Shown here: piece by piece, positions 11,211 through 22,157 of the stretch
How positions within the stretch are numbered: position 1 is the first letter of the stretch
How the letters are laid out: each line of letters begins with the position of its first letter
Assembly: GCA_021107495.1 (NCBI GenBank)
Contig: JAIOSR010000244.1
Coordinates: forward strand, 1 to 37,321
DNA from: Desulfobacterales bacterium
Lineage (GTDB): Bacteria; Desulfobacterota; DSM-4660; Desulfatiglandales; Desulfatiglandaceae
DNA length: 37,321 nt
Direction of reading: 5' to 3'
Notes under the pieces: model-generated
What the model saw: the letters and a program-made list of their open reading frames with translations, nothing else
Database searches by the model: none
Told to the model about the DNA's origin: nothing
Position numbers and translations under genes: made by a program

Positions 11211-12095
11211 CTAAAACAACTTATCGCCCTCGCTTCTTTCAAATCTCATAAGACAAATCTGTTCAGAGATAAGACCCATCATAAAAACAATAATAGAGGT
11301 GGTAAAAAGGAGCGCACTCATATTGGTAAAGCGATCCCACATAAAAAAAGTGTATAGGTAGTAGGATAATCCTAAAACAAACATAAAAAAACTTACAGGA
11401 AGAAATATCCTCAACGGAGAATAAAGGGCACATATTTTGGTAATAATCATAAAAAATTTCAATCCATCCCTGAATATCTTGATTTTGCTTTTCCCCATAT
11501 TTCGTTTGCGCGTATTGATAGGGATATATTTCAGACTTTTCCCACTCCTTAAAACACCTAGCGTTAATGTAGTGGGGTAAGAGTATGTATTGGGAAGAAG
11601 GTATAAAAGGTTATGAGCAATCTCAGATTTTATTGCCCGAAAGCCTGAGGTAAGGTCCTGAACAGAGAATTTTGCAACGTATGAGGCCAACCAATTAAAT
11701 ATCCTGTTGCCCACTGCCCGACCCCATGAGGCTTGGTGTCCTTTTGGCCTCGCACCAACGACCATGTCGTTATCTGGAAATTCTTCAATAAATTTCTTAA
11801 TTTCCTCTGGCTCATGCTGACCATCCCCATCCATGAACACCAGGATATCACCCGACGCTATCCTTATACCACTTTTTATAGCCGCGCCATTGCCGATATT
11901 ATTGGGATGAGTGTATACAATAGCTCCTGCATCTTTCGCGACCTGGCCCGTATCATCTGTTGAACCGTCATTAATAACGATTATCTCGAAATCAGGATAA
12001 AGGCTTCTGGTTTTTCCTACAATATCGCCAATCGTCTGAGCTTCATTGTAGACTGGGATAATTATTGAAACTTCCGTTTTATCCATTTTTTGCAA
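11211..12095 (-). CDS. GT2 polyprenyl-phosphate glycosyltransferase (DPM1/GtrB-like) with C-terminal TM helices
   Basis: VSIIIPVYNEAQ, INDGSTDDT and the DxD-type FMDGDGQH are present, with hydrophobic C-terminal helices. It uses a TTG start at 12095 with GAGGAG 5 nt upstream. Confidence 0.85.
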   Translation of the reverse strand: MQKMDKTEVSIIIPVYNEAQTIGDIVGKTRSLYPDFEIIVINDGSTDDTGQVAKDAGAIVYTHPNNIGNGAAIKSGIRIASGDILVFMDGDGQHEPEEIKKFIEEFPDNDMVVGARPKGHQASWGRAVGNRIFNWLASYVAKFSVQDLTSGFRAIKSEIAHNLLYLLPNTYSYPTTLTLGVLRSGKSLKYIPINTRKRNMGKSKIKIFRDGLKFFMIITKICALYSPLRIFLPVSFFMFVLGLSYYLYTFFMWDRFTNMSALLFTTSIIVFMMGLISEQICLMRFERSEGDKLF

Positions 12096-12250
12096 TAAAG
12101 CTCCTCAAAATATAGTATAAAAAATGCTTATACAAATGCTATTTTAATTCTATATGTCAATATGGTCACAAAGTTTTTAAGAATAATCCCCTCAAAGTCA
12201 CATTTTTTATCAGGATCTACATCTTTATAGTATTCAAGAAAAAAATTTTG

Positions 12251-12314
12251 GACGCAGATAGAGGCTGATGTTCAGGATTTTTTATCTGCGGCTATCCGAA
12301 TAAATCTGTGTGCC
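12251..12314. repeat. ATCTGCG-type palindromic intergenic repeat
   Basis: CGCAGATA (12253-12260) is inverted to TATCTGCG (12283-12290), and a degenerate third copy AAATCTGTGTGCC lies at 12302-12314. A related TATCTGCGTC occurs near 4449 in another spacer. Confidence 0.35.
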
Positions 12315-19761: not shown

Positions 19762-19970
19762 TATAACACCTTGCCACCGCTTCTTATTCTCTATTTCTTG
19801 TTTTTAGGCGTTCAAGTTATTTGCCCTGTACAATGAACTGGAATTGTGTGTTCTTTTACAGGGCTTTTAAATGCCTCATACAATAACTTGCCGAAACCGG
19901 CTTTCTGTAATAGAATAACATGTTTCTATGTTCCTGTAAAAGACAGAACATATAATTCCTTTCAAAAGAA

Positions 19971-22157
19971 GTGAAGATGATGATCAATAGACTATCCCCC
20001 TCATATGGCCAACTGGACGCCTCACACTGCCGTAAGGTAATTTTTGCTTTAATTACATTAGCCGCCATAATTTTCATCATCTATGGGAATAGCTTTGACT
20101 GTTCCTGGCATTTTGACGACGAACCCAATATCGTCGATAATCCAAATCTACATTTAAGAGAATTTACATGGGATAATATCAAACAGGCATTGTACTCAGA
20201 TCGGAATCGTCCGAAAAGCCTCTACAGACCGGTAGCGTGCCTCAGTTTTGCCATAAACCACTATTTTGGGGGACTTAACGTCTTTGGATACCATCTCGTA
20301 AATATATCTGTCCACTTCATTGCATCTGTCTTCCTTTTCCTTTTTATTTACCACACTCTCAATCTTCCATCTCTTAGATTAAAATATGCTCACAACTCTT
20401 ACTTCATAGCCCTTCTCGCTGTCGTTTTGTGGAGTATAAACCCGATTCAGACCCAGGCGGTCACCTACATCGTCCAGAGGATGGCCGGCATGGCCGGTAT
20501 GTTTTACATAATGGGCATGTACCTTTATCTCAAATTTAGGACCGCTGACATACGATATCAAAAGGCGCTCTATTTCATACTATGTTTTTTCTTCACTTTA
20601 ATGGCTTTGGGTTCAAAGGAGAACGCCGTTATCCTTCCCTTGAGCCTGTTCGTCTATGAAATTCTTCTCCTGCAGGAAACAACAGCACAAAATCTCAGAA
20701 AAATATTTATGGTTTTTTTTGTTGTTACGGGAACGATTCTCATATTGGGATTTTCGCATATTTATAGCCAGGGCGGCAATATATTTTCTTTTTTGGATGG
20801 CTATGAAAATCGGCCTTTTACACTGACCCAACGGCTTTTGACTGAACCCCGAATCATTATTTATTATATTTCTCTTTTGATTTACCCGGTTTCCACAAGA
20901 CTGAGCGTGGCCCACAGCATAGACATCTCATCCTCTCTGTTTCATCCTTTTACCACTCCGATCTCCTTTATCGCAATATTCGCGGCTATATTTTTTGCCA
21001 TCTATCTGAAAAAGAGGCGTCCCCTGATTTCGTTCTCAATTATCTTTTTCTTTTTGAATCATGTAATAGAGTCCACGATTCTTCCCCTGGAGCTGATATT
21101 CGAACATCGAAACTATATCCCTTCCATGTTTTTTTTCGTGCCCGTGGCCATGGGGTTTTGTTATCTAATAGATTATTACAGAGCCAAAAGGGTCATGCAA
21201 TTCATAATAATAGGTTTTATTGTTTTTATTTTAATCGGATTGGGTCATTCCACATTTATGAGAAATTTCACCTGGAAAAACGAAAAAAGCCTCTGGATCG
21301 ATGCCTCTGAAAAGGCCCCTGACCTTTACCGGCCCCACCATAACCTCGGTAGATATTATGGTGATCATGGTCACATAGAAAAGGCCATTACTGAATACGA
21401 AACTGCATTAGCAAAACCCTTTTGTAATCGAAAAGATGAATCTTTTGTGGGTTATTACAATCTTGGCATGATATATGGGGGTTTCAAAGATTATGAAAAG
21501 GCGCTCCTTTATTTACACAGGGCACTGGCTTTAAATTCCTATTTCCCGTCTGTTTACAACAACATGGCTTCCCTGATGGAGGAGAAAGGAAAGCACGAAC
21601 TCGCTTATGAATACCTTGTTAAAGGGATTGAACTGAACCTGTACAGTCCCGAATTATTCGTTAACCTCGGGCTGTATTACCTGAAGAAAGGAGAACCGGA
21701 CAGGGCCATTTTTTGGTTGAAAAAAGCGGAAAATGAAAAACGCTTCGCCTATAACATTGCTTTAGACCTCGGCATCGCCTACAAACAGAAGGGCCTGTAT
21801 GGCAGGGCGGTCATATATTTTAAAAATGCCCTTAAGTATGGTCCACGAAATATAACACCTCATCTTCATCTTGCAGAGGTATTTTACAGGGCGGGTGACC
21901 ATAAACAGGCAAAACAAGAAACAAAAAGGATCATTCGCCTGACACAGGGGAAAGAGATGTTTGATAAGATAATACATGATCTCTCAACAAGGGATCGATC
22001 AAGCAAAATACGCCCTTGCGGGACCATTCTTATCCCCATGCTGAGAGACGAATACCTCAGAGAATCGAAAACATTAAAAGAATGGGGTGAATTATTAAAT
22101 CAAAAGGATTTATTGCTGAAGGGAAAAAAAAGAAATGATGATAATGACCGGGAGTAG
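19971..22157 (+). CDS. TMTC-like GT-C membrane protein with C-terminal TPR repeats
   Basis: The N-terminal polytopic domain has a WHFDDEPNIVDNPNL acidic loop and YRPVACLSFAINHYFGG. The C-terminal ~270 aa contain TPR-like repeats (YNLGMIYGGFKDYEKALLYLHRALALN and others). GTG 19971 and ATG 19977 are alternative starts. Confidence 0.8.
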   Translation: MKMMINRLSPSYGQLDASHCRKVIFALITLAAIIFIIYGNSFDCSWHFDDEPNIVDNPNLHLREFTWDNIKQALYSDRNRPKSLYRPVACLSFAINHYFGGLNVFGYHLVNISVHFIASVFLFLFIYHTLNLPSLRLKYAHNSYFIALLAVVLWSINPIQTQAVTYIVQRMAGMAGMFYIMGMYLYLKFRTADIRYQKALYFILCFFFTLMALGSKENAVILPLSLFVYEILLLQETTAQNLRKIFMVFFVVTGTILILGFSHIYSQGGNIFSFLDGYENRPFTLTQRLLTEPRIIIYYISLLIYPVSTRLSVAHSIDISSSLFHPFTTPISFIAIFAAIFFAIYLKKRRPLISFSIIFFFLNHVIESTILPLELIFEHRNYIPSMFFFVPVAMGFCYLIDYYRAKRVMQFIIIGFIVFILIGLGHSTFMRNFTWKNEKSLWIDASEKAPDLYRPHHNLGRYYGDHGHIEKAITEYETALAKPFCNRKDESFVGYYNLGMIYGGFKDYEKALLYLHRALALNSYFPSVYNNMASLMEEKGKHELAYEYLVKGIELNLYSPELFVNLGLYYLKKGEPDRAIFWLKKAENEKRFAYNIALDLGIAYKQKGLYGRAVIYFKNALKYGPRNITPHLHLAEVFYRAGDHKQAKQETKRIIRLTQGKEMFDKIIHDLSTRDRSSKIRPCGTILIPMLRDEYLRESKTLKEWGELLNQKDLLLKGKKRNDDNDRE

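Follow-up and report, generated by a model that had tools for sequence, protein, structure and literature searches.

A stretch of 37,321 nucleotides from a Desulfobacterales bacterium (contig JAIOSR010000244.1), referred to below as the window, carries a dense set of membrane glycosyltransferase genes that ends beside a gene for a type IV pilin. The segment is chromosomal. Its right side, from 24.4 to 37.3 kb, holds pyrC, pyrB and an rplQ-rpoA-rpsD-rpsK-rpsM-secY string on the minus strand, as read from the open reading frame (ORF) listing and from Pfam and NCBIfam scans, and the part that runs from the pilin gene leftward to a gene remnant at 664-1191 consists entirely of glycan-related genes in the same scans. 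We read positions 664-22566 as a glycosylation island on the chromosome that adjoins the gene for the major type IV pilin. An earlier note on this DNA had described four intact glycosyltransferases of fold class C (GT-C), two glycosyltransferases of family 2 (GT2), a truncated fifth GT-C and a neighbouring pilin gene. ORFs, Pfam matches and PDB matches show that all of these enzymes are present, and the pilin gene was found at 22186-22566 on the minus strand. The nearest relatives of the window are uncultured Desulfobacterota metagenome-assembled genomes labelled Desulfobacteraceae, Desulfatiglandales or 'Deltaproteobacteria'.

A TPR-tailed GT-C enzyme beside the pilin gene

Separated from the pilin gene by a gap of 28 bp is the gene for the fourth GT-C (19971-22157, plus strand), a TfpW-like enzyme with a tetratricopeptide repeat (TPR) region. 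This assignment draws on Pfam matches to TPR families, an AlphaFold model, a Foldseek search and invariant residues. The protein consists of a membrane domain at about residues 19-434, the TPR region at about 446-670 and a C-terminal tail to residue 727. The N-terminal 440 amino acids of the protein and of six homologs gave zero Pfam matches at E<=1, DUF1736 included, and a phmmer search against the PDB gave matches confined to the TPR region, which also matches the PilW, PilF and Tgl models.

AlphaFold2 models were built with 52-56 homologs, and reached a pLDDT of 86 for the full length and a pLDDT of 83 with a pTM of 0.87 for residues 1-440. The full-length model used in a fold search returned TPR proteins only. 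The N-terminal domain alone, searched against the PDB with Foldseek, returned STT3, Pmt4, ArnT and Pmt1/2 structures as its top 12 matches, all of them GT-C and all at probability 1.00, and after them unrelated transporters trail at a probability of about 0.1. The N-terminal domain is thereby predicted to have a GT-C fold. Behind the first transmembrane (TM) helix, the motif W-[HQ]-[FL]-D-D is invariant in the 52-56 homologs, with D49 and D50 as the acidic pair in the window protein. About 60 further positions are invariant in the same alignment, among them R86, H108, K216, R281, R288, E367, E374 and E378-H-R-N-Y382. The invariant DD together with these positions is the pattern that would be expected of an active enzyme. 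The AlphaFold model has about 13 long helices ahead of the TPR domain, which would put the repeats on the same side as loop 1, i.e. in the periplasm.

More than 5600 matches at E<=1e-5 make this a very large family. In some related loci (numbered with an L here) two family copies lie within 10 kb of each other: L020, L035, L042, L043, L048, L055, L057, L058, L075 and L076. In L035, L043, L057 and L058, the scanned copy appears to be separated from the pilin gene by the second one.

The protein had been described as a TMTC-like TPR enzyme, a label that holds for its architecture only. True TMTCs match DUF1736, a loop segment between TM7 and TM8, at E<1e-30 (PMC7801869). None of 7 members of the window enzyme's family matches DUF1736 at E<=1, and membership in the TMTC family was therefore rejected. 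The eukaryotic O-mannosyltransferases TMTC1-4 (GT105) and TMEM260 share with the window enzyme an N-terminal GT-C domain followed by TPR in the lumen or periplasm. Their acceptors are Ser/Thr of proteins, recognised as folded domains, and genes of the TMEM260_N type are found in sister islands. The window enzyme differs from the TMTCs in having about 13 predicted helices before the TPR instead of 11, and in having no DUF1736.

The closest parallel is TfpW, the pilin D-arabinofuranosyltransferase of P. aeruginosa group IV strains (Pa5196, PA7). To our knowledge, TfpW is the only GT-C for which glycosylation of a pilin has been demonstrated by experiment, and in the few Pseudomonas strains concerned this modification blocks phages specific to the pilus. 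TfpW, a protein of 646 amino acids, has 11 TM helices; its periplasmic loop 1 bears a DDx motif that is essential, and a large TPR domain lies in the periplasm. The tfpW gene lies directly downstream of pilA, the best structural template of the protein is ArnT, its donor is a polyprenyl-monophosphate sugar and Wzx/Wzy are not required (10.1101/2020.04.19.049825). The window enzyme is like TfpW in its multi-TM GT-C domain, the DD in loop 1, the C-terminal TPR and the pilA neighbour, a likeness of described anatomy and gene position rather than of aligned sequence. It differs from TfpW in being accompanied by three further GT-Cs and two polyprenyl-phosphate GT2 enzymes. The TfpW gene is downstream of pilA, whereas in the window's clade the gene for the TPR-tailed GT-C is convergent with pilA. 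Families of the TfpW-type D-arabinofuranose donor pathway (DprE1/DprE2, DPPR synthase) are absent among the window ORFs, so a sugar other than that of TfpW is expected. A search of the literature on pilin glycosylation by a TPR-tailed GT-C in Desulfobacterota or Geobacter found nothing relevant.

The pilin, its promoter and its regulator

The gene at 22186-22566 (minus strand) encodes a PilA-like major type IV pilin with a precursor of 126 amino acids, matching N_methyl with 41.9 bits as well as the Myxococcus PilA model. Its globular part is 23% Ser plus Thr. An alignment with 49 pilins of related loci shows that it lacks a Cys pair; its C-terminus (22186-22215) ends in GPGGSISKTN. The pilins of related loci are short, at about 110-120 amino acids when mature, and mostly lack a disulfide. 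Within the window's clade (L008-L034) the pilins have a conserved GPGG[ST][IL][ST] tail, and Syntrophales-type pilins have a G-x-I-T-P end. A C-terminal glycosylation site exists in the P. aeruginosa group I pilin. By analogy, and as speculation, the GPGG[ST][IL][ST] tail is a candidate glycosylation site.

At the convergent 3' ends of the two genes, and common to both, is a hairpin with a 12-bp stem, GACCGGGAGGAG-N8-CTACTCCCGGTC, read from the sequence at 22146-22177; it is probably a bidirectional terminator. Upstream of the pilin gene, at 22685-22699 on the minus strand, is a σ54-type -24/-12 element, TGGCATGGTATTTGT. The pattern TGGCA[CT]-N5-TTG[CT] occurs about 165 nt upstream of 47 of 78 pilin genes, against a background of 0.026 per 400 nt. 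The element would mark the pilin gene as that of a PilR-controlled major pilin. At 23064-24452 on the same strand is the gene for a PilR-like σ54-dependent response regulator with Response_reg, Sigma54_activat and HTH_8 domains, which is syntenic in relatives.

Linkage of the enzyme to pilin genes in related loci

One genome per species was scanned with a profile of the N-terminal domain, which yielded 78 loci with identities of 41-67%; they belong to Desulfobacterales, Desulfatiglandales, Syntrophales, Smithella and other groups. Pilin genes in them were located with a class-III signal-peptide regular expression and tblastn. Among the 48 loci that extend at least 1 kb to each side, a pilin gene lies no more than 600 bp from the gene for the TPR-tailed GT-C in 36 and within 3.5 kb in 8 more; it is farther away in 1, and 3 have none. 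In Desulfamplus magnetovallimortis (L074), a cultured carrier of the enzyme, the closest pilin gene is about 2.4 kb upstream and PMT_2 lies downstream. The density of pilin ORFs is 0.47 per kb up to 1 kb from the enzyme gene and 0.006 per kb beyond 4 kb, a difference of about 74-fold.

The linkage takes two arrangements. The pilin gene is either convergent, as in the window, or co-directional in the order pilR-pilA-GT-C, and in co-directional loci a PMT_2 GT-C gene or two polyprenyl-phosphate GT2 genes often come next, on the same strand. Function accounts better than inherited synteny alone for an adjacency that is kept through inversion and across orders. In relatives annotated with Pfam, the order is variable sugar genes, a glycosyltransferase of family 4 (GT4), a GT2 gene (GT2a), PMT_2, the TPR-tailed GT-C and the pilin, and the core of this order, from GT2a to the pilin, is maintained down to 44-50% identity. 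The neighbourhood comparison proposed in the earlier note thus found that the enzyme tracks the pilin in Desulfobacterales, Desulfatiglandales and Syntrophales.

Within 10 kb of the enzyme gene, a PMT_2 homolog is found in 19 of 35 loci and a polyprenyl-phosphate GT2 in 16 of 35. Five GT-C families were counted in the 39 loci of at least 19 kb: six loci hold one GT-C gene, 18 hold two, 11 hold three and four hold four. The four GT-Cs of the window are at the top of the common range, and not unique.

Three further GT-C enzymes and two polyprenyl-phosphate GT2 enzymes

The first GT-C (12454-14127, minus strand) belongs to the PMT_2 family, with 32.6 bits to Pfam PMT_2 against a cut-off of 26.1, and it also clears the Pfam PMT cut-off with 25.6 bits. 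Asp37 in its first loop is kept in 90% or more of 30 homologs. Searched against NCBIfam, ArnT included, it gave no match at E<=0.01.

The second GT-C (14078-16237, plus strand) is of the YfhO family, with 46.2 bits against a Pfam cut-off of 28.5, and is the first gene of a plus-strand operon. Its strong C-terminal match covers profile positions 757-835 of 835, and a weak N-terminal match, residues 30-425 to profile positions 4-384, is colinear with it. D53 in the first periplasmic loop is conserved among four sequences. The PMT_2 and YfhO ORFs diverge from overlapping 5' ends (14078-14127), which leaves no space for an intergenic promoter region.

The third GT-C (16342-17955, plus strand) matches Pfam GT87 with 30.8 bits against a cut-off of 25 over profile positions 19-237 of 237, and GT87 is a GT-C family. 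An FDEP motif follows its TM1, as seen in one sequence only, and no homolog was found among 86 related loci. This protein had been called ArnT/PMT-like, which is acceptable in view of an 85% hhalign probability to the PMT_2 family, and imprecise in that its family is GT87. Searches of the PDB with phmmer gave no matches for the PMT_2, GT87 and YfhO proteins.

The four GT-Cs had also been taken for paralogs, a description that did not hold. Apart from PMT_2 versus GT87, profile-profile probabilities among the four were at most 38% by hhalign, with 38% for the TPR enzyme's N-terminal domain versus PMT_2 and about 1% for YfhO versus the others. Profile comparison thereby places the four intact GT-Cs in four distant families. 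Acidic residues in the first extracytoplasmic loop after TM1 were found in all four: D37 of the PMT_2 protein, D53 of the YfhO protein and D49-D50 of the TPR enzyme are conserved, and the FDEP of the GT87 protein is known from its single sequence. Profile searches assigned both GT2s, and every GT-C except the TPR enzyme, to the families expected of them, and the fold search placed the TPR enzyme.

The first GT2 enzyme, GT2a (11211-12095, minus strand), is a polyprenyl-phosphate glycosyltransferase of the ArnC/DPMS/AglJ type with 110.8 bits to Glycos_transf_2 and a DGD motif; its true start is probably the ATG at 12086. Its best family match is the AglJ model (residues 8-284 to positions 1-286 of 293), and its best solved relative is ArnC (PDB 9hwj, E 1.3e-20 over residues 8-245). 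In relatives GT2a adjoins PMT_2 and is conserved at 68-84% identity. The second, GT2b (18796-19761, plus strand), is of the GtrB/PgfS type with a DAD motif. It matches GtrB (PDB 5ekp) over its full length at E 1.5e-67, residues 16-315 to 27-327, and also aligns with ArnC. Its NCBIfam scores of 212.5 bits for PgfS and 158.5 bits for ArnC are far under the equivalog cut-offs. By hydropathy, GT2a and GT2b each have two C-terminal hydrophobic helices. The plus-strand gene string 14078-22157 holds both YfhO and GT2b, as well as a methyltransferase dependent on S-adenosylmethionine (SAM) at 18029-18799 (Methyltransf_23, 65.1 bits) whose stop overlaps the start of GT2b.

Similar pairings are known from streptococci, in which GtrB and a YfhO-family GT-C (PgtC2) glucosylate Ser/Thr-rich protein regions (PMC12041528), and in which the Pgf system (PgfS, PgfM1, PgfE, PgfM2) carries out protein O-glycosylation of extracytoplasmic targets with GT-Cs (PMC5856776). 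In these systems as in the window, a GtrB/PgfS-type synthase is encoded with a YfhO- or PMT-type GT-C. The window differs in its Gram-negative host, in the pilin as the linked candidate acceptor and in its set of GT-Cs.

Sugar genes, a flippase candidate and exporters

The left part of the island holds genes for sugar supply. On the minus strand are a DegT/DesI-like sugar aminotransferase (4511-5596; DegT_DnrJ_EryC1, 331.9 bits), a GFO/IDH/MocA oxidoreductase identified with Pfam (5593-6558) that is probably a sugar ketoreductase, an NDP-hexose 2,3-dehydratase with two domains (6588-8054; Hexose_dehydrat, 517.5 bits), and an enzyme with B12-binding and Radical_SAM domains of the NCBIfam HpnJ/BchE class (8203-9462), probably a C-methyltransferase. 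The best NCBIfam match of the aminotransferase is DesI, a dTDP-4-dehydro-6-deoxyglucose aminotransferase, with 302 bits, below the equivalog cut-off. By established deoxysugar chemistry, the gene set 4511-9462 would lead to a 2,6-dideoxy hexose, probably 4-amino and methylated. Antibiotic deoxysugars of actinomycetes (2,6-dideoxy, amino, C-methyl) typically come with such a set of a 2,3-dehydratase, a GFO-type oxidoreductase, a DesI-like aminotransferase and a B12-radical SAM enzyme. RmlA and RmlB are not among the window genes. Relatives hold different sugar sets, e.g. AsnB, an acetyltransferase and an epimerase/dehydratase.

Two GT4-type cytoplasmic glycosyltransferases are encoded on the plus strand, at 3265-4368 (Glyco_trans_1_4, Glycos_transf_1) and 9894-11033 (Glycos_transf_1, 88.9 bits), together with a further SAM-dependent methyltransferase at 2525-3268 (Methyltransf_11/25). 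An LPG_synthase_TM / MprF-flippase-like membrane protein (1542-2483, minus strand) matches Pfam PF03706 with 62.2 bits, and scores 40.7 bits against the TIGR00374 'flippase-like domain', slightly below its cut-off of 43.2. A PF03706 gene recurs in the related island L085, with a product 27% identical to that of the window. The protein is the sole flippase candidate for lipid-linked sugars in the window.

Consistent with the lack of a Wzx/Wzy/ABC exporter reported in the earlier note, none of the ORFs of at least 80 amino acids in 1-22 kb matched a family of Wzx, Wzy, ABC transporters or initiating phosphoglycosyltransferases. In the related island L086, positions 1-3064 hold a Wzx-type Polysacc_synt gene and then a gene for a 513-amino-acid protein without a family; in tblastn, neither the window nor any of the other 85 loci gave a counterpart.

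Exchange of cassettes between close strains

Comparison with the closest strain, L001, whose housekeeping DNA is 93% identical to that of the window, indicated how the island varies. Window positions 16201-19964, a 3.8-kb cassette of GT87, methyltransferase and GT2b, are absent from L001 at a point located at L001 9923-9985, and the DNA that flanks the cassette is 85-93% identical between the two. Conversely, L001 has an extra 2.4 kb at window junction 14122-14187, which includes a 650-bp intergenic region and, placed between PMT_2 and YfhO, a TMEM260_N-type GT-C. The two strains have nothing in common leftward of GT2a. Another relative, L012, matches window 6254-12088 at 88% identity, deoxysugar genes included; its TPR-tailed GT-C has 67% DNA identity and abuts PMT_2. 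Accessory genes are exchanged as cassettes, even between strains that are 93% identical in housekeeping DNA. A repeat search around the cassette borders found short chance matches only, with no boundaries resembling insertion sequences or att sites and no tRNA genes.

A proposed route of pilin glycosylation

Altogether this suggests that the locus is a σ54/PilR-controlled pilin O-glycosylation island that uses sugars on undecaprenyl phosphate (Und-P), a multi-GT-C variant of the TfpW system; we hold this with moderate confidence. The earlier proposal of a periplasmic glycosylation system of several enzymes is thereby supported by sequence evidence, and its acceptor is narrowed by gene linkage only, to the pilin as a candidate. 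The enzymes were placed in GT-C families and a Wzx-type gene occurs in only 1 of 86 related loci, both of which agree with that proposal. We infer that all six enzymes may act in one pathway.

In such a pathway, GT2a and GT2b would load sugars on undecaprenyl phosphate at the cytoplasmic face, with GT2a probably loading a strain-specific amino-deoxy sugar and GT2b a hexose. The lipid-linked sugars would be flipped to the periplasm, perhaps by the LPG_synthase_TM protein. There, the TPR domain would dock the pilin and the DD loop would move a sugar to a pilin Ser/Thr, as in P. aeruginosa TfpW. The PMT_2, YfhO and GT87 enzymes would extend or decorate the same glycan with the same kind of donor, or modify further sites. 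An alternative suggested by GT2a's AglJ match is that, ahead of flipping, the GT4 enzymes lengthen an Und-P-linked oligosaccharide, which a GT-C then transfers as a block. Exchange of the accessory cassettes would then give strain-specific pilus glycoforms, plausibly under pressure from phages or predators. Pilin glycans shield P. aeruginosa from pilus phages (10.1101/150227), and such protection would explain the turnover of cassettes.

A bolder version is that Desulfobacterota have a conserved locus for pilin glycosylation in which a TfpW-like TPR-tailed GT-C starts the glycan, and swappable GT-Cs build it up wholly in the periplasm from Und-P-sugars. This is tentative, and on balance we doubt it. 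If true, it would amount to a protein-anchored, Wzx/Wzy-free assembly line of PMT_2, YfhO, GT87 and TMEM260-like enzymes, comparable to mycobacterial lipoarabinomannan synthesis, and the strains would wear specific pilus coats with rare 2,6-dideoxy-amino sugars.

Several observations weigh against a dedicated pilin glycosylation island. The Foldseek E values of the N-terminal domain are modest, at 0.01-0.06, with query-normalised TM-scores of 0.34-0.52, and the TfpW motif YX6PFX7P of periplasmic loop 4 is absent from the window protein and 85 family members by a regular-expression search. Within one phylum, synteny is partly inherited instead of selected, and about half of the 35 related loci lack the PMT_2 and GT2 partners. 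Where the donors are monosaccharides only, it is not obvious what the two GT4 enzymes would do. The Wzx-type Polysacc_synt gene of L086 stands at the edge of that island, so the absence of an exporter is not universal. Lastly, GT2a, PMT_2 and the aminotransferase together resemble the logic of Arn lipid A modification, and some of the enzymes may act on lipopolysaccharide (LPS).

Alternative readings of the island

This last point leads to a reading of the locus as a mixed hot spot, in which the TPR-tailed GT-C alone serves the pilin, and LPS, lipid A or a different glycan of the envelope is the target of the remaining modules; we think it unlikely. Recombination would have placed there an Arn-like module of GT2a, PMT_2 and the amino-deoxy-sugar genes, and a module of GT2b, YfhO and GT87 that is Gtr- or CsbB/YfhO-like. 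It is established that an aminotransferase, a polyprenyl-phosphate GT2 and a PMT_2-family GT-C follow arnB/arnC/arnT logic, and the hot spot would also fit ArnC as the best solved relative of GT2a, the roughly half of related loci without the partners, and the turnover of cassettes with insertions of toxin-antitoxin genes. The Arn pathway (ArnB/ArnC/ArnT/ArnE/F) shares with the window these three kinds of enzyme and a small or unusual flippase that replaces Wzx. It differs in that the window lacks ArnA, ArnD and a match to the ArnT model, opens its sugar route with a 2,3-dehydratase and is linked to pilA; among the Arn markers, no formyltransferase/decarboxylase or deformylase was found among the window ORFs. 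The failure of PMT_2 to match any NCBIfam model, ArnT included, counts against the hot spot, as do the co-directional loci, which put PMT_2 or GT2 genes right after pilA and the TPR-tailed GT-C on the same strand, and the order from GT2a to the pilin, kept at identities as low as 44-50%.

Somewhat less credible, and in our view improbable, is a general O-glycosylation system like Neisseria PglL, streptococcal GtrB/PgtC2 or Pgf, with GT-Cs that act on many proteins of the periplasm and cell surface, for which the pilin would be one substrate or a mere neighbour. YfhO-family and Pgf enzymes target proteins broadly (PMC12041528, PMC5856776), and the sheer number of family members of the TPR-tailed GT-C, along with the second copies in several loci, would suit such a system. 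The pilin linkage that persists independently of arrangement is, however, typical of the dedicated TfpO and TfpW and not of the unlinked general PglL.

It is very improbable that the TPR protein lacks enzyme activity and serves pilus assembly or stability in the manner of the TPR proteins PilF, PilW and Tgl, within an ordinary polysaccharide locus with its exporter elsewhere: the TPR matches to the models of those factors and an N-terminal domain without a Pfam family favour it, but that domain has a predicted GT-C fold, its invariant loop-1 DD and invariant Arg, His, Glu and Lys are typical of an active site, and an initiating phosphoglycosyltransferase is absent.

Relevance to Desulfobacterota pili

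The pilin O-glycosylation reading suggests that the TfpW-type design, with two to four GT-Cs, may be the rule in a large and mostly uncultured anaerobic phylum, and that glycan genes turn over between near-identical strains. Desulfobacterota pili, a frequent topic in connection with adhesion and electron transfer, probably carry glycans. The pili of syntrophs and sulfate reducers matter in aggregation and interspecies contact. The analysis offers a concrete candidate acceptor, the pilin at 22186-22566, and D49 and D50 as predicted catalytic residues. The related loci also offer comparative sets for how TPR-tailed GT-Cs, human TMTC/TMEM260 relatives included, select folded protein substrates.

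Island border and minor observations

The remnant at 664-1191 (minus strand) is a truncated PMT_2-type GT-C of 175 amino acids with 35.9 bits to Pfam PMT_2, its residues 75-138 matching profile positions 3-66 of 160. It is the left edge of the island. The border beyond it is formed by the 3' end of a CoA-disulfide reductase/rhodanese gene at 5-715, on the opposite strand. The truncated ORF overlaps, with its 3' end, the final 52 bases (664-715) of this gene, which is consistent with a deletion having set the left edge.

Scans of the window found no tRNA genes and no Rfam families, and an exact-sequence look-up of two window proteins matched no record. The window also holds no toxin-antitoxin pairs. 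Such pairs, of the PIN/PhD and HepT/MNT kinds, lie in or beside related islands at L001 2989-3689, where the pair is PIN/PhD, at L086 6353-8129 and at L085 13535-14163.

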